A DNA stretch of 42,943 nucleotides, from the sequence record OK539825.1; one strand, given 5' to 3'. A model generated the notes under the pieces. That model searched no databases, was not told the DNA's origin, and saw only the letters and a list, made by a program, of their open reading frames with translations. The translations under genes were made by a program, and so were the position numbers. Position 1 is the stretch's first letter, and each line of letters begins with the position of its first letter. The DNA is from Pseudomonas phage phipa4. Positions 1 through 42,840 of the stretch are shown here, piece by piece.

Positions 1-270
1 ATGAACGTAACCAACCTTAAAACCGCCGTCGAAATCAAAATTGAAATCGAATTGGCCGCTTGGGCCAACGGCGAAAAGAAAGTTAACGTTTCCAACCAAT
101 TCGACGAAAGCGTTTTGGAATCGGCGAAAGAAGCAATTTCCGTTGAAGCAATCGCCGCAATCGTTGCCAAGTATCCGGGCGCGAACTTCGAAGGCTTTTC
201 GGTTATGACTTGGGCGCACGAACTTTCGGCTTTCAAAGCCCCGGAAATCGACCGGGCTTGGTTCGACTAA
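1..270 (+). CDS. hypothetical early protein (89 aa); probably complete if the contig is circular
   Basis: ORF starts with ATG at nt 1. Window end (42870-42943) supplies an early promoter plus leader ending ...GAAGGAACCGAAGCC immediately 5' of this ATG. Followed by a strong terminator. Confidence 0.5.
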   Translation: MNVTNLKTAVEIKIEIELAAWANGEKKVNVSNQFDESVLESAKEAISVEAIAAIVAKYPGANFEGFSVMTWAHELSAFKAPEIDRAWFD

Positions 271-272
271 GC

Positions 273-298
273 AAGCGCCCTTCGGGGCGTTTTTTTTT
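273..298 (+). terminator. rho-independent terminator (UUCG tetraloop)
   Basis: aaGCGCCC-ttcg-GGGCGtt followed by T9. Confidence 0.7.
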
Positions 299-309
299 GT
301 TCGTACCTA

Positions 310-338
310 TTGACGAACCTTCGAAGCTGCCGTATATT
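310..338 (+). promoter_or_regulatory. early promoter, conserved family copy 1
   Basis: TTGACG-17 nt-TATATT. Spacer contains palindrome CTTCGAAG. T-tract/UP-like and GTTCGTACCT upstream. Confidence 0.6.
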
Positions 339-374
339 TGAACCATCGAAGCAAACAACGAAGGACTAACGAAC

Positions 375-581
375 ATGAACGCACTTAACAACATTCAACG
401 GGTCGTAAGCTGGAACAGCAAGAAGAACGACGACGGCACCTTTACCGCTACCGCGTACAGCTTCGACCATAACGCGCCGACCGTCGTACATGCCAGCTAC
501 ACGCGCGCCAGCCGCGCCCAAGCCGTCGCAGACGCCAAGAAGGCCGTTCGTTACCTGAAAGCCCAACAGCGCACCGCGTAA
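375..581 (+). CDS. hypothetical protein (68 aa)
   Basis: ORF with GAAGGA RBS 9 nt upstream. Leader shared with other early genes (AACCATCGAAGCAA...CGAAGG). Confidence 0.55.
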   Translation: MNALNNIQRVVSWNSKKNDDGTFTATAYSFDHNAPTVVHASYTRASRAQAVADAKKAVRYLKAQQRTA

Positions 582-2356: not shown

Positions 2357-2539
2357 ATGAAAATTCTTCTTCAAACAAGCCCGAATGTCGGAACATTCCA
2401 ACACGAATTCGAAAGTATCATGCTTTTAATCGGTTGGCAAAAAGGCGCTTTGGCTATTAGCGAATGCGGTTCGTACTATCTGAACGAAGACGTTTCGCGC
2501 CATTGGCAAGCCTTCCTTTTCAACAAAAACGACGCCTAA
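2357..2539 (+). CDS. hypothetical protein (60 aa)
   Basis: ATG 2357 with AAGGAACC RBS. Leader resembles the one at the window end. Confidence 0.5.
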   Translation: MKILLQTSPNVGTFQHEFESIMLLIGWQKGALAISECGSYYLNEDVSRHWQAFLFNKNDA

Positions 2540-2589
2540 TCAACCAAGCGCGCCGGGCGCAACCCGGCATTTTTGAAGGAGTTATAACA

Positions 2590-3024: not shown

Positions 3025-3246
3025 ATGGCGGACGAAGTAGACCAAACAGCCGACCGAATAGAAAACGAAGTAAGCTTTACGGTCGGCGAACTTTGCCGAA
3101 AGGCCGCAGCTATACCCGCAGGCCGTCCGGGCGAATGTGATTTTTGCGGCGAACACTTCGCGCGCGTCGTTGAAGTGACCGACCCGCATACGGGCGAAGT
3201 CGTCGAAAGCTGCGGTCGCTGTCGTGACCGAAGGGGCATCGCATGA
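3025..3246 (+). CDS. TraR/DksA-type C4 zinc-finger protein
   Basis: CDFCGEHF...17 aa...CGRCRD (Cx2C-N17-Cx2C). Confidence 0.5.
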   Translation: MADEVDQTADRIENEVSFTVGELCRKAAAIPAGRPGECDFCGEHFARVVEVTDPHTGEVVESCGRCRDRRGIA

Positions 3247-3752: not shown

Positions 3753-3955
3753 TGGGGCTTTCGTGTCTTGCCTGCGAACTTACCCGCGCCCGGTTGAAAG
3801 CGGCGGCGCTGGCCCTTGTGGGCTGGCCCCTTGACCGCATCGCCGGGCATTTGTCCGTTTGCTATGGCGAACGGTATTACGTCGAAGGCGGCAAGCTGTA
3901 TCGCGCGTCGAAGTTGCCGCCGTATCAACCGTACTTGATAAGGGGCGAAGAATGA
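3740..3955 (+). CDS. hypothetical protein (about 67-71 aa)
   Basis: ATG 3740 or 3752, in frame with track ORF 3425..3955. Confidence 0.4.
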   Translation: MGFVMGLSCLACELTRARLKAAALALVGWPLDRIAGHLSVCYGERYYVEGGKLYRASKLPPYQPYLIRGEE

Positions 3956-4131
3956 AAAAGACCGACGAAGAATTGATAGACGAAGCCCGCAGCATTGCGC
4001 GTTCGAAACGCTGTTTCGTCGTAACGAAGCCGGGTTATTGGCTGCTGTACCGCGAATCGGTGCCGCGTAACGTATGCGTCGGCAAACGGTCTTCGGCTGC
4101 GGCGTTGCTGCAACTTGCGAAAAAGGCTTGA
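3952..4131 (+). CDS. hypothetical protein (59 aa)
   Basis: ATG 3952 with AAGGGG RBS. ATGA overlap with upstream stop. Confidence 0.45.
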   Translation: MKKTDEELIDEARSIARSKRCFVVTKPGYWLLYRESVPRNVCVGKRSSAAALLQLAKKA

Positions 4132-4156
4132 CGTAGCTTCGAAGCTGTCGTACACT
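4128..4156 (+). promoter_or_regulatory. early promoter, conserved family copy 3
   Basis: TTGACG-17 (TAGCTTCGAAGCTGTCG)-TACACT. Spacer holds the perfect 12-bp palindrome AGCTTCGAAGCT. Confidence 0.6.
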
Positions 4157-5731: not shown

Positions 5732-6115
5732 ATGAAACCGCTAGACCATTCGCAAATCGAAGGCTTGTTGTTCTATCAAGACCCAACGACGCAAAACTAT
5801 ATCGGCGCACCGAAGGCCGAACCGTTCAACCAAGCCGGAAGCTTCGTCGCATTCGGGCCGCGTGTTACCGTTGACCCGGCGTTGTATAATTTGCTTGCCG
5901 CAGCGCCGACAATGTACCAAGCCCTTTCGATGCAATACGCTTACCTTCAAGCGCAAATCGAAGTTATCGAACGCTTGCCAAGGGTCGGCGAACTTGATAA
6001 GCTGTTGTCGTCGTTAATCGAAGCGCAGAACGCTTGCCTAATGGCCCAACGTATCGCGCAAGTCGGTTACGAAAATGTCGCAAATTCACTTGACAAAGGT
6101 TCGAAGCGGTCGTAA
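5732..6115 (+). CDS. hypothetical protein (127 aa)
   Basis: ATG 5732 in TAACGAACATGAA context, same as the gene at 375. Confidence 0.5.
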   Translation: MKPLDHSQIEGLLFYQDPTTQNYIGAPKAEPFNQAGSFVAFGPRVTVDPALYNLLAAAPTMYQALSMQYAYLQAQIEVIERLPRVGELDKLLSSLIEAQNACLMAQRIAQVGYENVANSLDKGSKRS

Positions 6116-6118
6116 GCT
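6090..6118 (+). promoter_or_regulatory. promoter, variant of the early family
   Basis: TTGACA-17 (AAGGTTCGAAGCGGTCG)-TAAGCT. Conserved leader AACCATCGAA follows. Confidence 0.45.
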
Positions 6119-6442: not shown

Positions 6443-7015
6443 ATGGCTACCAAGAAATCGACCGCGAAGAAGAACACCGCCGCCCCGGTTATCGGCCTTG
6501 CCGAAATTGTTGCAGCCGGGCCGAATGGCCTGTATACTTCGCCTGCCGTACATGGCCCGCTTATCGAAGCCGGTATGGTGGAAATCAACCCGGCAGTAAC
6601 CAACGAAGCGGGCGAAATCGCAACCCGCGCAACCCAAAAAGGAATCGACGAAATGAATCAGAACAACGAAACCGGCACCGCCGCAGCTTCCGCCCCGGTC
6701 GCTACTTCCTTCGCCATCGAAGACAACGTACCGATGCCGACCGGCAGCGGTCGCGGTCGCGGCGGCAACGTTTACCCGTTCGACGCGCTGGAAGTCGGCC
6801 AAAGCTTCTTCGTTCCGAACAGCGAAGACAAGCCGAACGCCGCGAAGTCGCTTGCTTCGACCGTTTCCAGCGCAACCGCCCGTTTCGCCGTGCCTTCCGA
6901 AGACGGCGCGACCAAGACCAACAAGAAGGGCGAAACCGTGCCCGTCATGGTCGAAACCCGCAAGTTCGTTGTTCGTTCGGTCGAAGGCGGCGCGCGCGTC
7001 TGGCGCACCAAGTAA
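6443..7015 (+). CDS. hypothetical protein (190 aa), monocistronic and probably abundant. Lys-rich N-terminus. Shares the GQSFxVP motif with ORF 1605.
   Basis: TTAAGGAG RBS. Own promoter and a strong downstream terminator. Confidence 0.65.
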   Translation: MATKKSTAKKNTAAPVIGLAEIVAAGPNGLYTSPAVHGPLIEAGMVEINPAVTNEAGEIATRATQKGIDEMNQNNETGTAAASAPVATSFAIEDNVPMPTGSGRGRGGNVYPFDALEVGQSFFVPNSEDKPNAAKSLASTVSSATARFAVPSEDGATKTNKKGETVPVMVETRKFVVRSVEGGARVWRTK

Positions 7016-7063
7016 GCAACGGCGCGGGCTACGGCCCGCCCTACGCCTACGCTTCAACGGAAA

Positions 7064-7093
7064 CCCCGGCCATTGCGCCGGGGTTTTCTTTTG
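7064..7093 (+). terminator. rho-independent terminator
   Basis: CCCCGGC-cattgc-GCCGGGG followed by TTTTCTTTT. Confidence 0.75.
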
Positions 7094-8230: not shown

Positions 8231-8536
8231 ATGTTTTCCGTAATTTGGGCCAAGTTTGGCAAATGGCTTGCCGCAATCGGCGCGGGTCTTGTCATGCTGG
8301 CAAGTATTTTTTATGCCGGTCGCAAGTCCGGCGCAACCAAGGCCGAAGCCAACGCAGCAAACGAACGGGCAAACGACCGCGAAGCAATCGCAGTTCGCCA
8401 AGTTAACGAAGCCCGCGAAGCTTCCGAACAACAGGTAAAGGCGGTACAAAATGCGAAAGAAGTTGCTTCCGATAATTCTACTTTTGACGACGACGAAGTT
8501 ACTAAGCGGCTGCGCGACGAATGGTCGCGCGACTGA
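8231..8536 (+). CDS. i-spanin (Rz-like)
   Basis: N-terminal TM, charged coiled-coil periplasmic domain. Confidence 0.6.
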   Translation: MFSVIWAKFGKWLAAIGAGLVMLASIFYAGRKSGATKAEANAANERANDREAIAVRQVNEAREASEQQVKAVQNAKEVASDNSTFDDDEVTKRLRDEWSRD

Positions 8537-8732
8537 ACCGCAAAGCATCGCCGACGCAGTGCAAACGAAGCCCGTTGTAATCGACACGGCTTGCAAATGG
8601 GTTGCACCTATTTGGATTTCGAAGGCCGACGGCTTGACCGCTGGCACGGCCCGGCAAATTCTGAACCATAACGAAGCCGTCGAACGCAATTGCGGGCCGC
8701 AGTCGCCGCCTAAATCTGCGGACAAGCCTTAA
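8451..8732 (+). CDS. o-spanin (Rz1-like lipoprotein), overlapped architecture
   Basis: Signal peptide with lipobox LLSGC. Three Cys. Starts inside the i-spanin gene in another frame and extends beyond it. Confidence 0.6.
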   Translation: MRKKLLPIILLLTTTKLLSGCATNGRATEPQSIADAVQTKPVVIDTACKWVAPIWISKADGLTAGTARQILNHNEAVERNCGPQSPPKSADKP

Positions 8733-8789
8733 CAGAACGCGGGGCTTGCGGTATAGTGAAGCCAACGACGTATAAACTAGGCCGACACT

Positions 8790-9278
8790 ATGTCCGACGA
8801 ACTGAAAGAAAGCGAAGAAAAGGCCGCATACGCGGCCCTTCTTTTGAAAGAACGCGACCCGTTTAAGGCTGCGCTTTCGCTGTTTCCGAACAACACGAAT
8901 CGCGCGCTATGGGTTGCGAACCATTGGCCGAACGACGCCGAAGTTAAGGCCGAACAAAAGCGCCTTACCGACGAAGGCGGCGATATGGCATTTCTTCCGG
9001 GCAAAGGCGACCTTGCCCGCGACATTTGGCAGCGTATGCAAGGTACGACGCTTCCGAACGGCGTAACCATTCCGCCGACGCCCGAAGAATACGCGAAGCT
9101 TGCCAAGCTTTACGCCGACGTTCGCGGGTTCATCGAAAAGCCGCAAACAAACGTTAACGTAACGACGAACGTAAACCGCGTCGTCGAAATGCCCGTATTC
9201 GCTAACGAAAGCGAATGGGAAGCGGAAGCCGCACGGCAACAGCGCGAATTGTTAGAAAATGCACGCACTCGCCATTGA
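8790..9278 (+). CDS. putative terminase small subunit
   Basis: Position immediately upstream of and overlapping TerL. 162 aa. No family motif recognised. Confidence 0.4.
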   Translation: MSDELKESEEKAAYAALLLKERDPFKAALSLFPNNTNRALWVANHWPNDAEVKAEQKRLTDEGGDMAFLPGKGDLARDIWQRMQGTTLPNGVTIPPTPEEYAKLAKLYADVRGFIEKPQTNVNVTTNVNRVVEMPVFANESEWEAEAARQQRELLENARTRH

Positions 9279-10867: not shown

Positions 10868-12373
10868 ATGCCGAACGTTTCATTTATTCGCCCCGAACTT
10901 GGTAAGCTGCTGCCGCTGTATTACCTGATTCGCGACGCAATCGCGGGCGAACCAACGGTAAAAGGCGCGCGGACGACTTATCTTCCGATGCCGAACGCCG
11001 AAGACCAATCGAAAGAAAATAAGGCGCGTTACGAAGCGTACTTGAAGCGGGCCGTTTTCTATAACGTAGCCCGTCGAACCCTGTTCGGCTTGGTCGGTCA
11101 AGTGTTCATGCGCGACCCGGTTATTAAGGTTCCGGCGCTGCTGAACCCGCTTGTCGCGAACGCGACGGGTTCGGGTATCAACCTTACGCAGCTTGCGAAG
11201 CGCGCCGTATCGTTGAACCTTGCTTATTCCCGCGCCGGGCTGTTGGTCGATTACCCGACGACCGAAGCCGAAGGCGGCGCTTCGATTGCCGACCTTGAAG
11301 CCGGGCGCATTCGTCCGACCCTGTACGTATATTCGCCGACTGAAATTATCAATTGGCGAACGACCGACCGGGGCGCGGAAGAAGTTTTATCGTTGGTCGT
11401 ACTGTTCGAAACTTGGTGCGCTGCCGATGATGGTTTTGAAATGAAAACGTCGGGGCAATTTCGCGTTTTGCGTTTGGACGAAGAAGGTTATTACGTCCAT
11501 GAAATTTGGCGCGAACCGCAGCCGACCAAAGCCGATGGCACGAAGATTCCGAAAGGCAATTACCAACAACACGTCGTTTACAAGCCGACCGACGCGCAGG
11601 GCAAACGACTTACCGAAATTCCGTTTATGTTCATCGGTTCGGAAAACAACGATTCGAACCCGGACAACCCGAACTTTTACGACCTTGCGTCGCTGAATAT
11701 GGCGCATTATCGCAATTCGGCGGATTACGAAGAAAGTTGTTATATCGTCGGACAGCCGACGCCGGTTCTTATCGGCCTTACCGAAGAATGGGTTACGAAC
11801 GTTCTTAAAGGTTCGGTTAACTTCGGTTCGCGCGGCGGTATTCCGCTTCCTGCCGGGGCCGATGCGAAGTTGTTGCAGGCCGACCCGAACACCATGCTTA
11901 AAGAAGCAATGGACGCCAAAGAACGACAAATGGTCGCGCTTGGCGCAAAGCTTGTCGAACAAAAGGAAGTACAGCGCACGGCAACCGAAGCCGAATTGGA
12001 AGCCGCTTCGGAAGGTTCGACGCTTTCAACCGCAACCAAGAACGTTTCGGCGGCCTTTGAATGGGCGTTGAAATGGGCGGCCCGTTGGGTCGGTCAAGCC
12101 GACGGCGGCGTTAAGTTCGAACTGAATACAGATTTCGACATTGCCCGCATGACGCCGGACGAACGCCGTTCGCTTGTTGAAGAATGGCAGAAAGGCGCAA
12201 TTACCTTCGAAGAAATGCGAACCGGCTTGCGTAAAGCTGGCGTCGCTACCGAAGACGACGCCAAGGCGAAAGAAAAAATCGCCAAGGATACCGCCGAAGC
12301 AATGGCCCTTGCTGCCCCGGCTAACGTGCCGGGCGATGGCAGCGGCGGCGATAATGTGGGCAACAGTGAATAA
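10868..12373 (+). CDS. portal protein
   Basis: 501 aa from ATG 10868 (AAAGGA RBS). Synteny TerL-portal-MuF. Confidence 0.6.
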   Translation: MPNVSFIRPELGKLLPLYYLIRDAIAGEPTVKGARTTYLPMPNAEDQSKENKARYEAYLKRAVFYNVARRTLFGLVGQVFMRDPVIKVPALLNPLVANATGSGINLTQLAKRAVSLNLAYSRAGLLVDYPTTEAEGGASIADLEAGRIRPTLYVYSPTEIINWRTTDRGAEEVLSLVVLFETWCAADDGFEMKTSGQFRVLRLDEEGYYVHEIWREPQPTKADGTKIPKGNYQQHVVYKPTDAQGKRLTEIPFMFIGSENNDSNPDNPNFYDLASLNMAHYRNSADYEESCYIVGQPTPVLIGLTEEWVTNVLKGSVNFGSRGGIPLPAGADAKLLQADPNTMLKEAMDAKERQMVALGAKLVEQKEVQRTATEAELEAASEGSTLSTATKNVSAAFEWALKWAARWVGQADGGVKFELNTDFDIARMTPDERRSLVEEWQKGAITFEEMRTGLRKAGVATEDDAKAKEKIAKDTAEAMALAAPANVPGDGSGGDNVGNSE

Positions 12374-12384
12374 GGGGCGCAATC

Positions 12385-13479
12385 ATGGCACTATCGGACA
12401 ATAAGCGACTGTACGATATTGCGACGCGCCTTGCTGTTTACGTTGAAGACGTGAAAGTTTGGCAGTCCCGACAATTCGGGTTCGTACTTCGCGAAGTAAA
12501 CTTGGAACTAACGCGCCTTCTTGGCCGTGTTCGGTATAAGACCCTTGACGGTCTTTCGAAGGCGCAGTTAAACAAGCTTGTTTCGGAATTACGGGAATCG
12601 CAATCGAAGATTTACAGCGCATACACGCAAACGCTACTTGAACAGTTAAAGGAATTCATGCGGGCCGACTTGGAAGTAAACCGGCGCGCATGGGTTACGG
12701 GTTATATCGAACTTGACGGCGAAGAAAGCGACGGTATTATTTCGGACGAAGAAGCGATACAGTTTCTTTTAGAAGTACCCAACGCCGATTCGAACCCGTT
12801 GTTCGGTTTAGCCGCTGTTACAGGAAGCGACGAACGCATTTGGTCGCAAGTTACGAATACGCCAATTCCGGCAAATGGTTTGTACTTGCTGCCGTTTATC
12901 AAGACGTTTACGAATTCGGCACAAGCTGGCGTCGAAAGCATGATTCGCAAAGCTTGGGCGAACCGTTGGACGGTTGAAGAAACCTTAACGGCACTTGTCG
13001 GCGATGGAACCGCAGCGCAGGGCACGCCGTCGCAGTTGCACCGGGTAAACGCGCAAGCCGCGTCGGTAATCCATACGGCAACCGCGCACGTTGCGGCGGT
13101 CGTTGCGGCTGGCGTTATGTCTGCGGTTTTCGGTCGTTACGTTTGGTATTCGGTAATCGACGGAAAAACAACGGACATTTGCATAAGCCGAAATCGCCGA
13201 ATCTATCGCTTCGGCGAAGGGCCGTTGCCGCCCGCGCATATCCGTTGCCGGTCGCACGTTGCCCCGGCAAATACCGCTAGTGACTTGGCCGAAGAAACGT
13301 TTTATACTTGGGTTGCCCGTCAACCTGCCCAAGTGCAAGACGACATATTAGGCGACGACGGCGGCGAAGCTTTGCGCGATGGTCGCTTAAAGGCGAAGGA
13401 TATTCCGAAGTATGATGCGGACAGGCCGCTAACTTACGAAGAATTCCGACGCAAGATTAAAGAAATTCTTTCCCGCTGA
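12385..13479 (+). CDS. head morphogenesis protein, Mu gpF / SPP1 gp7 family
   Basis: C-terminal D..TDICI...PPAHIRCRSH motif typical of Phage_Mu_F. Confidence 0.65.
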   Translation: MALSDNKRLYDIATRLAVYVEDVKVWQSRQFGFVLREVNLELTRLLGRVRYKTLDGLSKAQLNKLVSELRESQSKIYSAYTQTLLEQLKEFMRADLEVNRRAWVTGYIELDGEESDGIISDEEAIQFLLEVPNADSNPLFGLAAVTGSDERIWSQVTNTPIPANGLYLLPFIKTFTNSAQAGVESMIRKAWANRWTVEETLTALVGDGTAAQGTPSQLHRVNAQAASVIHTATAHVAAVVAAGVMSAVFGRYVWYSVIDGKTTDICISRNRRIYRFGEGPLPPAHIRCRSHVAPANTASDLAEETFYTWVARQPAQVQDDILGDDGGEALRDGRLKAKDIPKYDADRPLTYEEFRRKIKEILSR

Positions 13480-13515
13480 TTCGGTGAATCGGCATAACCG
13501 CAAGGAGTCCTTGAA

Positions 13516-14235
13516 ATGGCACTGAAAAAGAAACTTACCAAAGAAGAACACGCGAAGCTTTCGGACGCGCTGAAAGCCGAATATATCGAAGACGGCGACG
13601 GCTTCCGCCTTGACGTTGACGGCGACGAAGATACGGGCGCTTTGAAGCGCGCCAAAGACCGCGAAGCGCAGTTGCGCAAAGACGCCGAAAAAGAAGCGAA
13701 GGAACTTCGCGAACGGCTGGAATCCATCGAAGGCGACGACGCGCGCAAGAAAGGCGACATTGCGACGCTTGAAAAGTCTTGGCAATCGAAGCTTGAAAAA
13801 CAGCGCGAAGAATACGAAGCCAAGGTTTCCAAGCTTACTTCGCATACGACGAAAACGCTTGTCGATAACGTCGCGTCGCAGCTTGCCCACAAGATTTCGA
13901 ACGCCCCGGCAATCATCATGCCGCATATCAAGTCGCGGCTTATCGCAGACTTCGAAGGCGACACGCCGGTTACGCGCGTTCTGGACAAGGACGGCAAGCC
14001 GTCGGCCCTTACTATCGACGAACTGGCAAACGAATTCGTTGCAAACAAGGATTTTTCTGCTATTATCACGGCTAGTAAGGCGTCCGGCGGTGCCGGTAAG
14101 CCTTCGCAGAACGGCGGCGGTGCCCCGAAATTTAACGGTCAATCCGACAAACCCGCCGACCTTTCGAAGATGAATCCCGCAGAACTTGCGGCGCATCTTA
14201 AAGAAGCGAAGGCAAACGAAACTAAGGACGCTTAA
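13516..14235 (+). CDS. scaffolding protein
   Basis: Highly charged K/E-rich coiled coil. Position before capsid gene. Confidence 0.55.
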   Translation: MALKKKLTKEEHAKLSDALKAEYIEDGDGFRLDVDGDEDTGALKRAKDREAQLRKDAEKEAKELRERLESIEGDDARKKGDIATLEKSWQSKLEKQREEYEAKVSKLTSHTTKTLVDNVASQLAHKISNAPAIIMPHIKSRLIADFEGDTPVTRVLDKDGKPSALTIDELANEFVANKDFSAIITASKASGGAGKPSQNGGGAPKFNGQSDKPADLSKMNPAELAAHLKEAKANETKDA

Positions 14236-14237
14236 TC

Positions 14238-15215
14238 ATGGCACTTTCCGACCTTGCTGTTTACTCCGAATACGCTTATTCGGCTTTCTCCGAAACCCTG
14301 CGCCAACAGGTTGATTTGTTCAACGCTGCGACGGGCGGGGCTATCATGCTGCAATCCGCAGCGCACCAAGGCGACTTTTCCGACGTTGCCTTTTTCGCCA
14401 AGGTAACGGGCGGCCTTGTTCGCCGTCGTAACGCCTACGGTTCCGGCACCGTCGCCGAAAAGGTCTTGAAACACCTTGTCGATACGTCGGTTAAGGTCGC
14501 AGCCGGTACGCCGCCCGTTCGCCTTGACCCCGGCCAATTCCGTTGGATTCAGCAGAACCCGGAAGTCGCAGGCGCGGCAATGGGGCAGCAACTCGCCGTC
14601 GATACGATGGCGGATATGCTGAACGTTGGTCTTGGTTCGGTCTATTCGGCGCTGTCGCAGGTTTCCGACGTTGTTTACGACGCGACCGCGAACACCGATG
14701 CCGCCGACAAGCTGCCGACTTGGAACAACCTTAACAACGGCCAAGCCAAGTTCGGCGACCAATCGTCGCAGATTGCCGCATGGATTATGCACAGTACGCC
14801 CATGCACAAGCTGTACGGTTCGAACTTGACCAACGGCGAACGCCTGTTTACTTACGGCACCGTGAACGTTGTTCGCGACCCGTTCGGCAAGCTTCTTGTT
14901 ATGACCGATTCGCCGAACCTGTTTGCCGCAGGTACGCCGAACGTTTATCACATTCTTGGCCTTGTGCCGGGCGGCGTGCTGATTGGTCAAAACAACGACT
15001 TCGACGCGAACGAAGAAACCAAGAACGGCGACGAAAACATTATTCGGACTTACCAAGCCGAATGGTCGTACAACATCGGCGTTAAGGGCTTCGCTTGGGA
15101 CAAGGCAAACGGCGGCAAGTCGCCGACCGATGCGGCGTTGTTCACTTCGACCAATTGGGACAAGTACGCAACTTCGCATAAAGACCTTGCGGGCGTTGTC
15201 GTCAAGACCAACTAA
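14238..15215 (+). CDS. major capsid protein
   Basis: 325 aa directly after scaffold. Strong terminator downstream. Confidence 0.55.
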   Translation: MALSDLAVYSEYAYSAFSETLRQQVDLFNAATGGAIMLQSAAHQGDFSDVAFFAKVTGGLVRRRNAYGSGTVAEKVLKHLVDTSVKVAAGTPPVRLDPGQFRWIQQNPEVAGAAMGQQLAVDTMADMLNVGLGSVYSALSQVSDVVYDATANTDAADKLPTWNNLNNGQAKFGDQSSQIAAWIMHSTPMHKLYGSNLTNGERLFTYGTVNVVRDPFGKLLVMTDSPNLFAAGTPNVYHILGLVPGGVLIGQNNDFDANEETKNGDENIIRTYQAEWSYNIGVKGFAWDKANGGKSPTDAALFTSTNWDKYATSHKDLAGVVVKTN

Positions 15216-15230
15216 CCGACGACAGACGGA

Positions 15231-15253
15231 CGGGGCTTCGGCCCCGTTCTTCT
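15231..15253 (+). terminator. rho-independent terminator (UUCG loop)
   Basis: CGGGGC-ttcg-GCCCCG followed by TTCTTCT. Confidence 0.7.
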
Positions 15254-15284
15254 AGTCCTTCACAAATTCAAAGGAGTTTCGAAG

Positions 15285-15689
15285 ATGAAACCGGCAAAAA
15301 TTCTGTTCTTCGTTGACGGCAACGCGCCGACCCCGGAAGACTTCGCAGCCGCCGCCGAACTGAACGCGCAAGTTGTGTTCAGGAACGCCCGCGCTGTTCC
15401 GTCCGAACCGCATTCGCTGGAAATCTGCGACGGCGTAGCGGGCAAGGTTCCGAAGCTGTACGCCGACGCTTACCCGGAAGCGGGCGAAGCAATCAAGAAG
15501 AAGGCCGCCGAACTGAAAGCCCTTACTTCGAAGGTCGGCGACGCCCCGGCACCGAAGGCCAGCGGCAAGGCCGCCGACAAGCCCGCAGCCGCTACGCAGG
15601 GCCAGACCCCGGCGCAGGGCCAGAAAGCCCCGGCAGCGGCCCCGCAGGGCGGCAGCGCCCCGGCTTGGAACCCCAACCCGGCGCAGTAA
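15285..15689 (+). CDS. head decoration-like protein with Ala/Pro/Gln-rich tail (paralog A)
   Basis: N-terminal 35 aa similar to ORF 15755. Low-complexity C-terminus. Confidence 0.4.
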   Translation: MKPAKILFFVDGNAPTPEDFAAAAELNAQVVFRNARAVPSEPHSLEICDGVAGKVPKLYADAYPEAGEAIKKKAAELKALTSKVGDAPAPKASGKAADKPAAATQGQTPAQGQKAPAAAPQGGSAPAWNPNPAQ

Positions 15690-15754
15690 CGAACGGACGG
15701 CCTGTCGCTTATTGTGGGCAGGCCGTTTCAACAACGAACTAAGGAGTCTTCGCA

Positions 15755-16126
15755 ATGGCAACGAAAAAGGTTGTTTATTTTACGGCAGGCATTAACGCAA
15801 CGGCTGGCGAACTTGCCGACATTGCGAAGCTTAACGCAGCCGCCGAACCGCAATACGAAGTTTTGGTAGCCAACGGCGCAGCAAATGCCGAATACGGCGA
15901 AACCGACCGAATCATTCCGTCGGATTACGTCGCCGGTACTGCGCCTTCGGCTTATTCCGAAGTTGACGTTATCGACCCCGACGCAATCCCGAATCAGGCG
16001 CTTACGCCTACGCAGGCAATCGTTAACGACGCCGAAGCCTTGGCCGTTCCGGTTACTGGCACTTACACGACGACCGCAACCGTTAGCGTTGCGAACGGCG
16101 TTGTAACTGGCATCGTTCTTTCGTAA
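15755..16126 (+). CDS. Ig-like/decoration-like protein (paralog B)
   Basis: N-terminus KVVYFTAGINATAGELADIAKLNA similar to ORF 15285. Thr-rich beta-strand C-terminus. Confidence 0.4.
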   Translation: MATKKVVYFTAGINATAGELADIAKLNAAAEPQYEVLVANGAANAEYGETDRIIPSDYVAGTAPSAYSEVDVIDPDAIPNQALTPTQAIVNDAEALAVPVTGTYTTTATVSVANGVVTGIVLS

Positions 16127-16138
16127 GGACGTTGACGC

Positions 16139-16657
16139 ATGGCAATTACAATCGTTGTTGAAGACGGAAGCGGCGTAACAAACGCGAACAGTTACGTAAG
16201 CGTCGCAGACGCGCGCATTTACGCTTCTAATCGCGGCGTCGAACTTCCGTTGGACGACGACGAATTGGCGGCCATGCTGATTCGTTCGACGGATTATTTA
16301 GAAGCGCAGGCTTGCCGGTTTCAAGGCAAGCCGACTTCGACGACGCAGGCTTTGCAATGGCCGCGAACCGGCGTCTTTCTAAACGAAGACGAAGTACCGT
16401 CGAACGTTATTCCGAAGTCGCTTATTGCCGCGCAAGTTCAGCTTGCGATGGCGATTAACGCAGGCTTCGACCTTCAACCGAACGTTTCGCCGCAAGACTA
16501 CGTTACGCGCGAAAAGGTCGGGCCGATTGAAACGGAATACGCCGACCCGCTGTCGGTTGGCATCATGCCCACATTTACCGCAGCGAACGCGCTTCTTGCG
16601 CCGCTGTTTGGCGAATGCGCTTCGAACAAGTTTGCGCTTCGAACAATAAGGGTTTGA
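16139..16657 (+). CDS. head-tail connector protein (gp6-like)
   Basis: VSVADARIY...DDDELAAMLIRSTDYLE resembles Phage_connect_1 consensus. Confidence 0.55.
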   Translation: MAITIVVEDGSGVTNANSYVSVADARIYASNRGVELPLDDDELAAMLIRSTDYLEAQACRFQGKPTSTTQALQWPRTGVFLNEDEVPSNVIPKSLIAAQVQLAMAINAGFDLQPNVSPQDYVTREKVGPIETEYADPLSVGIMPTFTAANALLAPLFGECASNKFALRTIRV

Positions 16658-16660
16658 AGA

Positions 16661-17041
16661 ATGGCACAATTCGACCGCGCAATTAAGACGGCCCAACGGC
16701 TTATCGCGAAGAATGGCGAAAAGGTCAAATGGCGCGTTATCGAAGACGCGACGCCAACAGACCCGAACAAGCCTTGGGAACCCGGCCCGGCATTGCCGGA
16801 CGACAAAGACGTTACCATTTGCTTTTTGCCAGTTGACCGGCAGACGCAAGAAACTTTCAACTTCATTAAAGGCACCGAAGTTCCGAAAGGTTCAGTAATG
16901 GGGCTTATGGGCAATGTTCCGTTTGCCCCGAATTTGAAAGACGTTGTAATTCGTAACGGGGTCGAACTTCGCTTGGCTTATATCGACGTACTTTCGCCGA
17001 ACGGGCAAAAGGTACTTTATACGATGGTATTTCAAGCATGA
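16661..17041 (+). CDS. putative head-tail joining protein
   Basis: Position only. Confidence 0.35.
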   Translation: MAQFDRAIKTAQRLIAKNGEKVKWRVIEDATPTDPNKPWEPGPALPDDKDVTICFLPVDRQTQETFNFIKGTEVPKGSVMGLMGNVPFAPNLKDVVIRNGVELRLAYIDVLSPNGQKVLYTMVFQA

Positions 17042-17493
17042 TTGAATTCGACCAAGTTAACGACGAAGTAAACGCGCTTTTTCTTGCAACTTGGAACGCA
17101 GGAAGCGCGGCAATTGCGGGCTATGTTCCCGAAATTCGTTGGCAGGGCGTGCAATATCGCGACTTGCCGGACGGTTCGAAGTTTTGGGTTCGGCTGTCGA
17201 AGCAAACCGTTTTTGAAGAACAAGCGACCCTTTCAACCTGCGAAGGAGTACCGGGGCAAAGAAAATACACGGCGTCGGGTCTTGTCTTCGTACAAATCTT
17301 TTGCCCGAAATCGAATACGCAAGCGTTCGAACTTGGGCAGAAATTGGCGAAACTTTCCCGTAATGCTTTTCGCGGGAAATCGACGCCGGGTAAGGTTTGG
17401 TTTCGCAATACGCGAATTAACGAACTTCCGCCCGAAGAACTTTACGAACGGTTTAACGTCGTTACCGAATTTGAATACGACGAAATAGGTTAA
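17038..17493 (+). CDS. putative neck/tail completion protein
   Basis: Position only. Confidence 0.35.
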   Translation: MIEFDQVNDEVNALFLATWNAGSAAIAGYVPEIRWQGVQYRDLPDGSKFWVRLSKQTVFEEQATLSTCEGVPGQRKYTASGLVFVQIFCPKSNTQAFELGQKLAKLSRNAFRGKSTPGKVWFRNTRINELPPEELYERFNVVTEFEYDEIG

Positions 17494-17505
17494 GGAGTTC
17501 TTAAC

Positions 17506-19041
17506 ATGGTATGCGAAATTGCCAAAATCGACAGCAACATTACCGGACTTGCCTTCGCCGAAGAAGAATGCTTGAAGCAACTTCCGACGACGCCCGTTTG
17601 GTACGGACTGGAACCCAACAGCTATTCGGACTTCGGCGGCGAACTTTCGACCGTTGCCCGCGCGCCTATCGACCCGTCGCGCCAGAACAAGAAAGGCACG
17701 ATTACCGACCTTGACGCATCGGGCGGCTTCAACGCCGACTTTACGAAGACCAACCTTGCGCGAATTCTGCAAGGCTTCTTCTTCGCAGACGCGCGCGAAC
17801 TTCCTTCGACGCAGCCGCTTAACGGCGCATCGGTCGCGCTTACCGGCGTTACCGCAGTTGACAGCACTTACGCCGCAGCTTCCGGGCTTGGCGTGTTTGG
17901 TGCCGATATGCTGGTATATGCGACCGGCTTTGCCAACGCTGCGAACAACGGCCTTAAAACCGTCGTTTCGGCTACCGCTGCGGGCGTCGTTGTTGCCGAA
18001 ACCTTGATTGACGAAACCCCGCCCGCAGGCGCGAAGCTGGAATGCGTCGGTCGGCAGCTTGGCGCGGCAGACGCGAACATTGCCGTAACTGGCAACGTCG
18101 TTTCGCTTATCGTTACCGCTGGCGACTTTACGACCATGCCCGAACTGTTCCCCGGTCGTTGGGTCTTCGTCGGCGGCGATGCGACGGCAAACCGCTTCGC
18201 TAATAATGTGGGCTATGCCCGCATTAAGTCGGTTGCAGCGAAGGCGCTTGTTTTCGACGACGTGACTTGGCAGGCGACCAACGAAACCGGAACCGGCAAG
18301 TCGATTCGTCTTTTCGTCGGAACTGTTATCAAGAACGAAAAGACCCCGGCACTTATCAAGCGTCGTTCGTATCAAATCGAACGCACCTTGGGCGAAGGTT
18401 TGAACGGTACGCAGTGCGAATATCTGGAAGGCGCAGTACCGAACGAATTTACGTTGAACATTCCGCAGGCCGACAAGCTGAACGCCGACCTTTCGTTTGT
18501 TGCGTGCGACAACACTTACCGCAGCGGCGACCCCGGCGACGAACAGAAAGCCGGAACCCGCGTGCCTGCGCCCGGCGAAGATGCTTACAACACTTCTTCG
18601 GACGTTTACCGAATCAAGATGGCCGTTCACGACGCCGCGTCGTCGAACCCCGCCGCCCTGTTCGGCTACGTTTCCGAAGCGAACGTTTCGATTAACAACA
18701 ACGTTACGCCGAACAAGGCGGTCGGCGTGTTGGGCGCGTTCGATACTTCGGCGGGTAACTTCGAAGTCGGCGGTTCGATTACCGCTTACTTTACGACCGT
18801 CGCAGCGGTTAAGGCTGTTCGCGCGAACGCCGACGTTGGTTTGTCGGTAATCAGTGCGGCCAAGAACGCCGGTTTCGTGTTCGATATTCCGTTGCTTGGT
18901 TTGGGCGGCGGTCGTCTGAACGTCGAAAAAGACGCGCCGATTACCGTTCCGCTGGAACCCGCAGGCGCAGAAAACGCGAACGGCTATACGATGCTGTACG
19001 AAGTGTTTTCTTATCTGCCGAATCTGGCAATGCCGGACTAA
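17506..19041 (+). CDS. putative major tail (tube) protein, 511 aa
   Basis: Lies directly upstream of the chaperone pair and TMP. Strong terminator after it suggests abundance. No tube-sized gene elsewhere. Confidence 0.4.
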   Translation: MVCEIAKIDSNITGLAFAEEECLKQLPTTPVWYGLEPNSYSDFGGELSTVARAPIDPSRQNKKGTITDLDASGGFNADFTKTNLARILQGFFFADARELPSTQPLNGASVALTGVTAVDSTYAAASGLGVFGADMLVYATGFANAANNGLKTVVSATAAGVVVAETLIDETPPAGAKLECVGRQLGAADANIAVTGNVVSLIVTAGDFTTMPELFPGRWVFVGGDATANRFANNVGYARIKSVAAKALVFDDVTWQATNETGTGKSIRLFVGTVIKNEKTPALIKRRSYQIERTLGEGLNGTQCEYLEGAVPNEFTLNIPQADKLNADLSFVACDNTYRSGDPGDEQKAGTRVPAPGEDAYNTSSDVYRIKMAVHDAASSNPAALFGYVSEANVSINNNVTPNKAVGVLGAFDTSAGNFEVGGSITAYFTTVAAVKAVRANADVGLSVISAAKNAGFVFDIPLLGLGGGRLNVEKDAPITVPLEPAGAENANGYTMLYEVFSYLPNLAMPD

Positions 19042-19054
19042 TTGCGGTAAACTC

Positions 19055-19090
19055 AAAGGGCCGGGTAATACCGGCCCTTTCTTCATTCAA
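19055..19090 (+). terminator. rho-independent terminator
   Basis: AAAGGGCCGG-gtaata-CCGGCCCTTT followed by CTTCATTC. Confidence 0.7.
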
Positions 19091-19104
19091 TCGGAGTAAA
19101 TCAA

Positions 19105-19533
19105 ATGTCTGGACTGTTTAAGCAATTCAAAACGAATTCGACCAAGGAAGTCGAAGGCGTCGAAATCGAATTTCCCGAAGCGCAGAACGACGACGGCAGC
19201 GTTCCGACTTTCGTTATTTCCCGCATGGGCAAATCGAACAAGGCGTATTCAAAGGCGCTTGACGCGGCGACCCGTCCTTATCGCCGTCAAGTCGAACTTG
19301 GCACGCTGAAAAACGAAGTCGCCGAATCGCTGTTTATGGGCGTGTTCGTCGATACCGTGTTGCGCGGCTGGAAGAACGTTCAGGGCGAAGACGGCAAGGA
19401 AATTGCGTATTCGAAAGACGCCGCAATTTCGCTTCTTTCCGAACTGCCGGACGTTTACGAACGTTTGCAGGAAGAAGCCAAGTTGGCTTCGAACTTCCGC
19501 GATAACGCTTTGGAAGCCGAAGCAAAAAACTAA
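19105..19533 (+). CDS. tail assembly chaperone (gpG-like)
   Basis: 142 aa, acidic. Ends GCA AAA AAC TAA. Confidence 0.6.
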   Translation: MSGLFKQFKTNSTKEVEGVEIEFPEAQNDDGSVPTFVISRMGKSNKAYSKALDAATRPYRRQVELGTLKNEVAESLFMGVFVDTVLRGWKNVQGEDGKEIAYSKDAAISLLSELPDVYERLQEEAKLASNFRDNALEAEAKN

Positions 19534-19898
19534 CCGAAGTTTTGGCGCACCTGTTGGAACTTGGCCCACACGAACAGGCGATAGCAAAGCAAGCGATGCG
19601 CGCGGGGCAACCGTTACCCGAACGCATCGCGAACGCGCCAGAACTTGAAGTAGGCTTGCAGTTGTATTTGCAAGCCTTCTTCGACCTAGATAGCGAACGG
19701 TCGCACGGCAACGGTTTAACGCCGATACCTTGGACAAGTATTGCGGCTTACGCAAGGGCTTTCGAGTTTGACGAAGAACAAACCGAAGACTTGTTTTACT
19801 TTATGCGAAAGCTTGATTCGGAACACTTGAAGAAACTAGCGGACAAACAGAAAGCGGCGGCATCGAATGGCAAAAAGCCTGCTAGACCTAGCCGATAG
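19105..19898 (+). CDS. tail assembly chaperone G-T fusion via programmed -1 frameshift
   Basis: Slippery heptamer A_AAA_AAC at 19524-19530, 0 nt before the stop. The -1 frame is open from 19506 to 19898. Confidence 0.5.
19524..19530 (+). other. -1 ribosomal frameshift slippery site A_AAA_AAC
   Basis: X_XXY_YYZ heptamer in frame with ORF 19105. Confidence 0.55.
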
Positions 19899-30825: not shown

Positions 30826-30852
30826 TCAAAAGAACGACAGCGCGGCGGTTTT
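30814..30852 (+). terminator. putative terminator embedded in convergent gene ends
   Basis: CCGCCGC...21-nt loop...GCGGCGG followed by TTTT. Stops of + and - genes abut at 30825/30826. Confidence 0.3.
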
Positions 30853-32877
30853 GGCCTTCTTCAACCGCCCGCAGTCGTACAGCATTTCGACCGCTTCGTT
30901 AATGTACCAATCGTAATTTATATCGTCGGGAAATTCCGTCGGCAAGTCCATTACAGGGCGCGCGCCGTCGGTTTTCCCGACTTTGTTTCCGCTGGATACG
31001 TAAGCAATATACCCGGCTTCGTTCTTCGGGTAATACCAACGAACGACCTTGCCAAGATAACGACCGTTCTTTTCGCCGCCGCCGCGCACGTTCTTTACTG
31101 CAACGAAGCGCCGGAAGTCGCGGCATTCCTTAATTGTCTTTTCGACCGGCGTTCCGTCAACAAGGAAGCGAACAACGGCGTCGGAACAAATCAGGGTTTC
31201 GGGGTTCTTCGAAAGAATCGAATTCAAGGCCGACCCGCGTTCGCAATAAGCGCCCTTCGTTTTTGCGCCCAATTGTTCGTCAATAAAGCGCGCTTCGGGG
31301 TCGCCGCCGTCTTCCTTGATTGCGACATAACTATTAACGTCGCGGCTGAATACGGCTTTATACCGCGTTTCTTCGGTCTTGTATCCTGTCCATTCTTCCC
31401 AAGACGCAATAAGCGCCCTTACTTCGTCGTGTCGCGATTTGTGATACTTGGAAATAATGCCGTCGGTATTGCCGGAAATAACTTCGATGCCGATTTGTTC
31501 CAAAGCTTCGATAAGCATAAGCAACACAAGTTGCCCGGTAATCGTTACTTGCAACATAAGTTGCGGCGCGTAAAGCGTCGAATACTTGTTGCCAAGCTTT
31601 CCGAAGCTTCCGTTAATGGTAATCTTCAAGCTGTCGGCAACGGTCTTCCATTTCTTCGCGGCTGCGCGGTCGCCCGCCTTCTTTGCCTTGGCCGCTTCGG
31701 CTTTGGCATGAATTCGCGTATTTACGATTTTTTCGTAAACGGTCAAGAAAGCTTCGCCCAAGTGCGGCGGGCAAAGTCTTTGATTAAGGATTGTTCGCGG
31801 GTAAAACGATTCTACGTCGTTGTCTGCCAAAATTATTTCGTCGGTCGCATAGTGCGCCGTTTTCTTTTCGGTAGAATGCAAACCGCCCATGCCTAGTTTG
31901 TACGTCGAACCGCCGATGGTTACTTTCAGCTTTTCCAGTTCGGGCGGCATGATTGGCGAACCCAAGCCGTCAAGATAGAAGCGGGCGTTTCGCACGACTT
32001 CCAGCATTTCGCGAAGCTGCGTCGTTTGATAGCAAACGAAGTCGGGCACGTCGTAAACCAAGACCGTATCGGCGGATAGTGTGGGCTTCTTCGGATAATA
32101 GCCAAGGACTTTTTGAAGTTCGGAGTTAATAACCGCTTCGGCTACTTGTGCGTCTGATTTCGACCGAAGGTCTACGCCGTATTCTTCCGACATTTCGGCC
32201 CGCAATTTCAATTCGGGCGCAAGTTCGTTAAACAAAAGTTCGGTATTCGAAAGGTCGTTGCAGCAATAGGGCCGCACTACTTCGGCGTCTTCCTGCGTTA
32301 ATACATGGTCTTCGGGAAATGGCAAGTCTTGCATACGTTCGCAATGCAAGCGCCCCGCGTACAGCTTCAACGAACCTTGAAGCGGCGCAACTTCGATAAG
32401 GTCGATATGATTGTATCGGCCAATTTGTACGCCGTACTTCTTTTCAAACGCGAACGGCGTTACCTTTTCGGTTCCATAGTTCGGCCCGCTTTTAATGATG
32501 AAATCGGACGCTTCTTTAAGCTTCGCGCAGCTTGCCCCGCGTGCGGCAAGTTCAATCATCGGCAAGTCATAATTGCGCGAATTGAAGCCGACGATACAGA
32601 ACCGCCAAAGCATCCAAAGAAGCTTCGTCGGGTTAAAATCATGGTCGGGGCTGCGTTCAAACGCGACGAACTTTCCGTTATCAAGCGACTTAAACGCTAC
32701 GTAAAAGAAATTTACGTAAGTTTCAACGTCGAAGACGAAGACACTTCCGGCAGGCATTGCCGTTAGTTCTTCGTCCGACATAAATTCGACAGGCCGCAAA
32801 GCCTGTCGAATGCTTGCGGCCAGCTTATCGACGACGCGGCTTTTCTTTGCGACGATAAAGCCTTGTTCGTTAATCAT
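30826..32877 (-). CDS. DNA polymerase, family B, with 3'-5' exonuclease
   Basis: Exo I FVFDVETY. Motif A DVESFYPRTI. Motif B KITINGSFGKLG. Motif C SGNTDGI. AAGGGG RBS. Confidence 0.7.
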   Translation of the reverse strand: MINEQGFIVAKKSRVVDKLAASIRQALRPVEFMSDEELTAMPAGSVFVFDVETYVNFFYVAFKSLDNGKFVAFERSPDHDFNPTKLLWMLWRFCIVGFNSRNYDLPMIELAARGASCAKLKEASDFIIKSGPNYGTEKVTPFAFEKKYGVQIGRYNHIDLIEVAPLQGSLKLYAGRLHCERMQDLPFPEDHVLTQEDAEVVRPYCCNDLSNTELLFNELAPELKLRAEMSEEYGVDLRSKSDAQVAEAVINSELQKVLGYYPKKPTLSADTVLVYDVPDFVCYQTTQLREMLEVVRNARFYLDGLGSPIMPPELEKLKVTIGGSTYKLGMGGLHSTEKKTAHYATDEIILADNDVESFYPRTILNQRLCPPHLGEAFLTVYEKIVNTRIHAKAEAAKAKKAGDRAAAKKWKTVADSLKITINGSFGKLGNKYSTLYAPQLMLQVTITGQLVLLMLIEALEQIGIEVISGNTDGIISKYHKSRHDEVRALIASWEEWTGYKTEETRYKAVFSRDVNSYVAIKEDGGDPEARFIDEQLGAKTKGAYCERGSALNSILSKNPETLICSDAVVRFLVDGTPVEKTIKECRDFRRFVAVKNVRGGGEKNGRYLGKVVRWYYPKNEAGYIAYVSSGNKVGKTDGARPVMDLPTEFPDDINYDWYINEAVEMLYDCGRLKKAKTAALSFF

Positions 32878-32888
32878 GCGAAAGCCCC

Positions 32889-34031: not shown

Positions 34032-34242
34032 TTTCGGCCCCTTCTTCGTCAAGTTTTGAAATTGCCGCTTGAAGATAGTTCGCCAAGTCTAGCGTTTCTT
34101 CTAGCGCGTGTTGCAACCAATCGCGAAGCGACAACGGGTTATTATCCGTCGTTACGCCGTATTTTGCAAGTCCAACGATTGAACGTTGCAACAGTAATTC
34201 GCGGTTCTTTTCTACGTTTTTGTCAGGCGATGTTTCGGCCAT
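34015..34242 (-). CDS. hypothetical acidic protein (75 aa)
   Basis: ORF between helicase and clamp genes. Confidence 0.4.
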   Translation of the reverse strand: MAETSPDKNVEKNRELLLQRSIVGLAKYGVTTDNNPLSLRDWLQHALEETLDLANYLQAAISKLDEEGAENENRQ

Positions 34243-34246
34243 TTGT

Positions 34247-37425: not shown

Positions 37426-37441
37426 AAGTTCGCATACTCCT

Positions 37442-37480
37442 TAAAAAGAAACGCCGGGGCCGGTTAAGACCCCGGCGAAT
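37442..37480 (-). terminator. rho-independent terminator after the SSB-like gene (minus strand)
   Basis: Minus-strand CGCCGGGG-loop-CCCCGGCG followed by TTTCTTTTT. Confidence 0.5.
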
Positions 37481-37503
37481 CTACGCCGCGACGGCGTTAC
37501 GCC

Positions 37504-38250: not shown

Positions 38251-38308
38251 GATGTTTCACCTTTTCGAAAAGTCTTCGCCATTGGTTACGGCGGCGAAGT
38301 AAACCGTT

Positions 38309-39025: not shown

Positions 39026-39079
39026 AACTTGCACCTTCGGGAATGGCCCCGGCGCTTGTGGGCAACCGGGGCGGGGTTG

Positions 39080-42818: not shown

Positions 42819-42840
42819 GGCCGCCTTCGGGCGGCTTTTT
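42819..42840 (+). terminator. rho-independent terminator (UUCG loop)
   Basis: GCCGCC-ttcg-GGCGGC followed by TTTTT. Confidence 0.65.

Follow-up and report, generated by a model that had tools for sequence, protein, structure and literature searches.

We describe a family of five repeated elements in the genome of Pseudomonas phage phipa4 (sequence record OK539825.1), which was analysed over its full length of 42,943 nucleotides (nt) and is referred to here as the window. These elements are probably host sigma-70-type promoters, most likely early ones, that are carried in regulatory cassettes and double as recombination joints, in a manner resembling promoter-early stem-loop (PeSL) cassettes. 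The window comprises the whole genome, in circularly written form, of a Septimatrevirus, a siphovirus of Pseudomonas aeruginosa (phage 73/Kakheti25/Ab26/PaMx10 group), to which PA02_HSun-2022, W3 and PA16b are 98% identical over the first 8 kb. All five elements head gene blocks in the region of small open reading frames (ORFs) between the primase gene and the lysis genes, which is the stretch of highest variability between relatives. The early timing is suggested by this gene content and position.

A family of five probable promoter cassettes

Exactly five copies were found, all on the + strand and all of the form TTGAC(G/A)-17 nt-TAnnnT, with −35 hexamers starting at positions 310, 2294, 4128, 6090 and 42870 (hereafter P310, P2294, P4128, P6090 and P42870). 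These are the places given in the original prediction, which had been made from the letters of the window and had proposed a modular family of promoters, each containing a palindromic operator. A search with the pattern TTGACRWARSKTCGAASNKNNCGTA, allowing up to three mismatches, returned these five sites and no others, compared with a mean of 0.02 matches in shuffled sequence (0/100 shuffles reached five). A genome-wide weight matrix scan had been put forward as a check on the prediction. Using a 29-nt matrix built from the five copies themselves, the copies score 34-40 bits and the next best site on either strand scores 15 bits; as the top score over 30 shuffled genomes was 21.9, this next site falls within shuffle noise. 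Pairwise identity of the copies is 67-83% over 30 nt and 61-70% over 61 nt. The family is real, but to call its members near-identical, as was done at first, is too strong.

The copies match the sigma-70 consensus at 9-10 of 12 positions. A generic sigma-70 scan detects four of the five; the missing copy, P6090 (−10 hexamer TAAGCT), matches 9/12 consensus positions, yet it falls below the scan's 4-of-6 rule for the −10 hexamer. In all five cases an A/T tract accompanies the promoter, the end of the −10 hexamer lies 31-45 nt from an ATG on the coding strand, and a Shine-Dalgarno site precedes that ATG. A GTTCGT..TACCT element upstream of the −35, which was predicted for every copy, is present in P310 and P42870 and occurs as the variant GTTCGCAGGTA in P2294, but is absent from P4128 and P6090. 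The leader core AACCATCGAA(G/A)C, predicted to be shared by three copies, is indeed exact in these three and is located at 341, 6121 and 42902. Part of this shared leader (..AACGAAC.., AAGGAG) is the usual translation start context of the phage and recurs at genes that lack a promoter of this type. A search of the window against Rfam revealed no known RNA family in the leaders.

The first cassette spans the junction of the record. It starts after the primase gene with a terminator hairpin (GCCGCC-TTCG-GGCGGC and a T run, 42820..42840, +), which is annotated as a terminator in TehO (42091-42111). Promoter P42870 (42850..42943, +, 34.0 bits) follows, and comprises an A-tract (42850-42855), GTTCGTCGTACCTG (42856-42869), the −35 hexamer TTGACG (42870-42875), a 17-nt spacer with TTCGAA at 42880-42885, the −10 hexamer TAGAAT (42893-42898) and a leader (42899-42943) that runs into the ATG at position 1. 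P42870 would thus drive ORF 1-270 across the record junction, and the two are contiguous in TehO (42143). The cargo of this cassette, ORF1 (1..270, +), encodes 89 residues (phrog_22782, no function assigned) and is closed by a terminator hairpin of 8 pairs with a T9 run (273..301, +; annotated as a terminator in TehO, 42492-42517). Directly downstream lies P310 (302..374, +, 36.4 bits), made up of GTTCGTACCTA (299-309), the −35 hexamer TTGACG (310-315), a spacer with CTTCGAAG (319-326), the −10 hexamer TATATT (333-338), the leader AACCATCGAAGC from 341 and an ATG at 375.

The other three copies have no upstream terminator. P2294 (2274..2356, +, 35.4 bits) comes after a stop codon and an A-tract; the A-tract and GTTGTTCGCAGGTA are followed by the −35 hexamer TTGACG (2294-2299), a spacer with GTCGAAG, the −10 hexamer TACTAT (2317-2322), the leader CAACGAACACAAGGAACC and an ATG at 2357. 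Behind it are ORF 2357-2539 (60 residues) and a hairpin at 2552-2568 (2357..2568, +), a slot in which W3 has a homologue of ORF1. P4128 and P6090 overlap the 3′ end and the stop codon of the preceding gene. In P4128 (4117..4191, +, 40.0 bits) the −35 hexamer TTGACG (4128-4133) overlaps the stop codon (4129-4131) of ORF 3952-4131, the spacer holds the only perfect 12-bp palindrome of the family, AGCTTCGAAGCT, the −10 hexamer is TACACT (4151-4156) and the ATG is at 4192. The palindrome had been recognised in the original prediction, with its position given as 4134-4145; it lies at 4135-4146. P6090 (6070..6149, +, 35.2 bits) is situated within the 3′ end of ORF 5732-6115 and has the −35 hexamer TTGACA (6090-6095), a spacer with GTTCGAAG, the −10 hexamer TAAGCT (6113-6118), which contains the stop codon TAA (6113-6115), the leader AACCATCGAAAC from 6121 and an ATG at 6150. 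That the copies restart transcription, as was first suggested, is plausible. P310 and P42870 have a terminator hairpin just upstream; no such hairpin precedes P2294, P4128 or P6090.

Repeats spaced every ~2 kb could in principle be landmarks for a DNA-binding protein instead, that is, sites of replication, packaging or site-specific recombination and not promoters at all. Nothing specific favours this, and the single orientation of the copies, their fixed short distance to start codons and their fit to the consensus hexamers and spacing all argue for promoters. Moreover, no site-specific recombinase is annotated in relatives, and the AT-rich repeat region at 1285-1604 is a better candidate for an origin. 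We regard a non-promoter role as extremely improbable.

Conservation across relatives

The module was found in 64 phage records, all from the Septimatrevirus group, and in many IMG/VR contigs. Matrix matches occur at orthologous places in TehO, phage 73, PaMx10 and BAPIC_0004 and also in the divergent PaMx42/Ep028/NR08 clade (~70-77% DNA identity). A motif not conserved in related phages had been named in advance as grounds for abandoning the family; the records listed here, the PaMx42/Ep028 clade included, run the other way. In particular, the PaMx42-clade orthologue of P4128 keeps TTGACG-tagcttcgaa-accgtcg-TAGACT with both flanks unalignable, and a promoter at the P6090 position is retained down to ~44% identity of the downstream protein.

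No match to a family-specific pattern was found in a set of representative genomes covering 185,579 species of bacteria and archaea, and a looser pattern gave 56 scattered single matches in the same genomes, none of them related to the window. The module is therefore not a copy of a host promoter family, and a prophage origin was rejected on the same counts. A second candidate that we discarded was the Xanthomonas phage NR08 (L020, OQ055246, 98.8 kb) as an unrelated phage with the same promoter, since its record appears to join a Septimatrevirus-like genome to an Xp10-like one. The NR08 record looks like a concatenation, and its second part has genes 44L-55L and an ‘inhibitor of transcription initiation’ similar to Xp10 p7.

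A more distant relative, L050 (IMG/VR 2974576181_000001, 12315-19611; 63% primase identity), contains five repeated promoters, each with a strong hairpin engulfing the −35 (−22 to −27 kcal/mol, z-scores −3.3 to −4.4). The 3′ arm of the hairpin lies in the spacer and is followed by a T-rich −10. By its sequence, this layout is that of a textbook composite terminator/promoter.

Probable cassette shuffling at the promoter copies

The window has the arrangement promoter-ORF1-terminator-promoter after the primase gene. At the same place, W3 and phage 73 have a single chimeric promoter, and ORF1 and its terminator are absent. As far as TTGACGtagcttcgaa this promoter is identical to P42870, and from cgTATATT on, leader included, it is identical to P310. 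The gene itself is found elsewhere: W3 and L017 carry an ORF1 of 90% identity downstream of P2294 and its leader, in place of ORF 2357-2539. On the left it is joined at the ATG, and on the right the junction precedes the hairpin at 2552-2568. Across loci, five different first genes are joined to the P2294 promoter-leader type, five to the chimeric type and four to the P42870 type, and two or three promoter types are found upstream of each of ORF1, the MNALN gene and the MAKA gene. BLAST matches to the P42870 module among the 64 records end at three discrete points in the leader.

Exchange extends beyond the genus in one case. The AT-rich contig L005 of an uncultivated phage (IMG/VR 3300028603_000025, 98.9 kb) carries a 370-bp insert (8432-8801) that reaches from the −35 to the stop codon of ORF1. 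The insert shares 90% DNA identity with the window, up to 96% with other Septimatrevirus records and 98% protein identity, whilst the rest of the contig resembled none of the phage records. The insert is single and genuine, and the contig comes from the same metagenome as a Septimatrevirus-like contig. More distant homologues of ORF1 elsewhere have their own, different promoters.

These arrangements are consistent with a cassette that would consist of an optional terminator hairpin, an A/T tract, the −35, a 17-nt spacer, the −10, a leader of ~25-40 nt that is poor in T and contains a Shine-Dalgarno site, and a start codon. Such cassettes would fire in parallel along the rightward small-gene region, from behind the primase gene to the terminator at 7059-7088, so that each gene block would have an initiation of its own, and two of them would also halt incoming transcription. 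With 60-100 bp in common, the copies could serve as homology patches, and the Sak4-type annealing protein and Cas4-type exonuclease of the phage could carry out exchange between such short repeats. Recombination at these patches would delete, insert or relocate promoter-gene units.

The spacer core

Within the module, the spacer between the hexamers is far from uniform. Among 26 non-redundant copies the information content is ~2 bits for TTGAC (−35 positions 1-5), 2.1 bits for the TA...T of the −10, 1.4-2.1 bits for the TTCGAA of the spacer and 1.9 bits for the CG at −14/−13, with 0.2-0.85 bits at the positions between; the adjacent positions of the spacer have 0.4-0.85 bits. The sites behind these figures were picked by a matrix of which the spacer forms part. 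All copies have the CG before the −10 (26/26). A second variability test was carried out in which alleles were defined solely by at least 80% identity over 110 nt. In orthologous groups, TCGAA and CG vary in 1/35 cells as against 12/50 other spacer cells (Fisher p = 0.012), and hexamer cells vary in 3/60; a cross-clade hand count gave 7/36 versus 23/54 (p = 0.025). The TCGAA + CG core thus seems to be constrained in close clades and may, on the strength of this pattern, act like a third promoter element. Constraint on these positions is not specific to an operator.

A number of observations weigh against the interpretation of the elements as promoter cassettes that serve as joints, starting with the selection of sites just described. 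At P6090 the distant orthologues lose the core (ccgaag, gtaaaag, ttctaag, caaaaca) while the promoter stays, and the core is therefore not essential for the promoter there. No data on start sites or timing were found in the literature for any Septimatrevirus, so that both promoter activity and the term early are what we infer. A stem-loop is attached to two of the five window copies only (273-301 and 42820-42840), and RNA folding of the spacers of the five modules gave structures no better than those of shuffles (z −1.4 to +1.0). The middle segment of the W3 chimeric promoter, ggtatcg, matches neither window copy, which means that this promoter is not a simple product of P42870 and P310; it could be the ancestral state, and the event may have run in either direction. 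P4128 and P6090 remain with their own genes and show no junctions in the sample. Finally, mosaic break points occur at almost every gene boundary of the region and not at promoter copies alone, and the recombination role is thus argued from qualitative cases at three copies and not from a statistical excess.

As an addition to the promoter reading rather than a replacement for it, the core could bind a phage or host regulator that would switch this promoter class off or boost it during infection. The bound site would be TTCGAA/CTTCGAAG, perhaps in combination with a similar ATCGAAGC that lies 25-26 bp further downstream, where the leader begins. The core and CG are as invariable as the hexamers with variable neighbours between them, and three of the five copies have a box-like sequence again where transcription is predicted to start; the five L050 promoters have a similar A(T/A)CGAA(G/A)C 6-7 nt past the −10. 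Furthermore, other sigma-70-like sites of the genome (1546, 6364, 8729, 39600(-), 40230(-) and 40237) have no box at this position, so the box could mark one class of promoter. However, TTCGAA and TCGAAG are generally favoured words in the genome, and distant orthologues lose the box and keep the promoter. Symmetry is also short: a palindrome of 6 bp (TTCGAA) is present in 18/26 copies, of 8 bp (CTTCGAAG) in 10/26, of 10 bp in 1/26 and of 12 bp in 1/26, changes in the arms are uncompensated, and the outer arms are broken asymmetrically in the orthologues of P4128. No conserved dyad site of operator length was found among the 26 copies, and the dimeric regulator originally read from the P4128 palindrome is not supported.

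Nor did a search for the regulator itself identify a DNA-binding protein that co-occurs with the box. Two proteins had been named as candidate binders. ORF 40292 belongs to the PHROG ‘HTH DNA binding protein’ (helix-turn-helix, HTH) and has no Pfam or PDB sequence match; it was rejected because its phyletic pattern does not match that of the box, with no detectable homologue in the complete, box-bearing genomes of PaMx42 and Ep028 and homologues in relatives with few or no boxes. ORF 6443, a DUF7303 protein without a PDB match, was rejected because its gene belongs to the core set and occurs in relatives without the box as well. The other early proteins gave no match to a DNA-binding domain, and a phyletic search for early genes whose distribution follows that of the box yielded the cargo of P4128 alone, which is trivial. 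We therefore hold a promoter-operator family to be a tentative proposal at best. A reader of the spacer core is possible but unsupported, and a palindrome in one copy is no evidence for one. The more specific proposal, that TCGAA..CG and the related ATCGAAGC at the transcript start form a recognition element for a small early phage protein, or for a host protein shared by Pseudomonas, Xanthomonas and Stenotrophomonas, appears somewhat less likely again. If it were true, it would place a whole set of mobile promoter cassettes under temporal control, and any gene captured behind a cassette, even in another phage, would inherit the same regulation.

Two wider signals were tried and discarded. An extended dyad from −35 to −10 (ACGTA..TTCGAA..TACGT) has outer and inner centres offset by half a base pair, and its symmetry is not conserved. 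TTCGAA and CTTCGAAG are in excess genome-wide by 2.5-fold and 12-fold, respectively, over a first-order model, but the ratios are 0.78 and 1.17 under a maximal-order Markov model; because the excess vanishes, it is compositional and no dispersed signal.

Alternatively, the likeness of the spacers may have no function. The copies would then be paralogues from duplication of one cassette, kept alike by repeated recombination or gene conversion, both from one copy to another and among co-infecting phages. There is direct evidence of exchange at and within the copies, namely the chimeric promoter, the relocated cargo and the transfer between phages. P6090 of the window clade is nearer to the family consensus than are its orthologues in other clades, and the box fades gradually with divergence, reading TTTGAA/GTCGAA, TTTGAAG and TTCGGCG at 88%, 74% and 63% primase identity. 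Yet conversion homogenises tracts, and here invariant and variable positions alternate within 29 bp. The PaMx42-clade orthologue of P4128 is moreover an island of identity between unalignable flanks, and the CG that is invariant in the 26 non-redundant copies recurs, as CG or TCG, before the −10 of the predicted promoters at 6364 and 39600(-), the former of which resembles a diverged family member. On balance a purely passive likeness is conceivable but rather doubtful, on a par with the promoter-operator proposal.

The box might also be the decayed arm of a PeSL-type hairpin, left from an ancestral terminator stem that enclosed the −35 and had its 3′ arm in the spacer. Exactly this layout is seen in L050-L052, with ..CTTCGGCG.. 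as the 3′ arm, and PeSL stem-loops between or overlapping the −35 and −10 have been reported (PMC2839356). None of the five window modules folds significantly, and a remnant should drift, whereas in the close clade TCGAA varies no more than the hexamers do. A spacer hairpin as in some PeSLs was accordingly rejected for this phage on its z-scores, though it is true of L050, and descent from one seems quite unlikely.

Comparison with known systems

PeSL cassettes were described in T4-like myoviruses (Arbiol et al. 2010, PMC2839356; Comeau et al. 2014, PMC4122927). Each is a repeat of ~100 bp that combines a strong sigma-70-like promoter and the AT-rich tract upstream of it with a terminator stem-loop, a Shine-Dalgarno site and the first part of the following gene (PMC2839356). 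The model links three arrangements: a gene flanked by two copies in one phage, a single chimeric copy in a related phage, and the same cargo in a different place (PMC2839356, PMC4122927). The family described here likewise is a repeated promoter motif with an A/T tract, concentrated among small orphan genes, with an orphan gene between two copies in one phage, a single chimeric copy in a relative and the same gene in another context. Joints of this type were found at P42870, P310 and P2294 and not at P4128 and P6090. The hairpin that engulfs the −35 in L050 represents one PeSL subclass (PMC2839356). The systems differ in that ours is carried by a 43-kb siphovirus of Pseudomonas, Xanthomonas and Stenotrophomonas, in five copies rather than ~50, with an adjacent stem-loop at two of the five copies, none in the spacer, and a conserved non-hairpin core (TCGAA..CG) within the spacer. 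Excised mini-circles that carry one chimeric copy and its cargo are a further mark of PeSL cassettes; promoter, terminator and mini-circle activity are putative here.

The P42870-ORF1 unit also invites comparison with morons, for it is self-contained, with its terminator in the window. It is absent from W3 and phage 73, and ORF1 together with its promoter was inserted in the unrelated 99-kb contig. Morons usually occur as unique insertions in late prophage regions, with expression from the prophage. They are promoter, gene and terminator units of lambdoid and other temperate phages (Juhala et al. 2000; Hendrix et al. 2000). In contrast, the unit described here is one of a family of repeated promoters and lies in the early region of a phage in which no lysogeny genes are annotated, and the repeats themselves would supply the joints.

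With early promoters of other phages the family shares several near-consensus sigma-70 promoters, A/T-rich upstream sequence and similarity beyond the hexamers. The A1-A3 promoters of T7 and the early promoters of T5 are strong and host-recognised, are clustered at the genome end or experimentally mapped, and need no phage factors. Here the copies occur every ~2 kb, each tied to a gene block and deduced from the genome, and they have a specific spacer core and a putative role as mosaic joints. The lambda OR/OL operators, the stoperators of mycobacteriophage L5 and the conserved inverted repeats of phiC31 resemble the family in being short conserved sequences at many transcription units of one phage that overlap promoter elements. 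In those systems the repressor is identified and the sites, clearly dyad or asymmetric, measure 13-17 bp, as opposed to a symmetry of 6-8 bp in the family and a sole HTH candidate that does not co-occur with the box. By analogy, then, the family is best filed as a set of PeSL-like cassettes in a siphovirus, with a moron-like ORF1 unit, and not with demonstrated operator systems. The promoter cassettes are a known kind of system and not a new one.

The arrangement provides a first proposal for a map of transcription units in the early region of Septimatrevirus, several members of which are candidates for phage therapy. It extends the shuffling of promoter/terminator cassettes, described in T4-like myoviruses, to small siphoviruses, and includes one case of a promoter-gene unit that crossed into an unrelated phage. 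In practical terms, the copies may offer compact, probably strong promoters for several gamma-proteobacterial hosts, and they are natural insertion points for engineered cargo genes.

Genome setting and other features

The gene order of the window was assigned after annotated relatives. Terminase, head and tail genes occupy 8790-30825 (+) and are followed on the − strand by DNA polymerase, helicase, the Cas4-type exonuclease, the Sak4-type annealing protein and MazG (30826-40154). Back on the + strand, the primase/helicase and a small HTH gene before it (40292-42791) precede ~20 small genes that span the record junction and extend on the + strand up to the strong terminator at 7059-7088, after which comes the lysis cassette. 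Pfam assigned no family to most ORFs downstream of the promoter copies. Neither a phage RNA polymerase (in close relatives) nor lysogeny genes (in the phage) are annotated. The GenBank records of relatives that we examined have annotated terminators and ribosome sites but not promoters, and the literature yielded nothing on these promoters or on a Septimatrevirus transcriptome.

The non-coding stretch at 1285-1604 (320 bp) has an AT-rich core (GC content 26% around 1350-1575) and is crowded with repeats of the (G)TATAA(C/G)G type, which run in both directions; the stretch may represent either an origin of replication or a regulatory region. Inside it lies a plain sigma-70-like promoter (TTGACA-17-TATGAT at 1546) for ORF 1605-1880. 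This ORF (phrog_10287) has a domain in common with the C-terminal half of ORF 6443-7015 (DUF7303, phrog_7597), and each of the two stands behind a promoter-like site (1546 and 6364) without the family box in register. In the divergent region between MazG (−) and HTH-primase (+), at 40195-40291, back-to-back −35 boxes jointly form the palindrome CTGTCAAcaacaaTTGACAG, and the TTCGAAG box is not present. Three 6-bp palindromes (ACGCGT, ACCGGT and AGCGCT) have zero copies in the whole window compared with 12-38 expected from composition, which suggests avoidance of restriction sites.

Lastly, two small genes of the promoter-bearing region may bear on the host. The gene behind P4128 (4192-4497) encodes a very acidic protein of 101 residues, rich in D, E and Y, with the C-terminus DYEPDYDYY and no family match, which could be a DNA mimic or a host-takeover protein. 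DksA/TraR-like proteins target RNA polymerase and not DNA. One such zinc-finger protein (phrog_54) is encoded in the early region at 3025-3246, is annotated in W3 as ‘RNA polymerase-binding protein’, and could modulate the host polymerase at these promoters.

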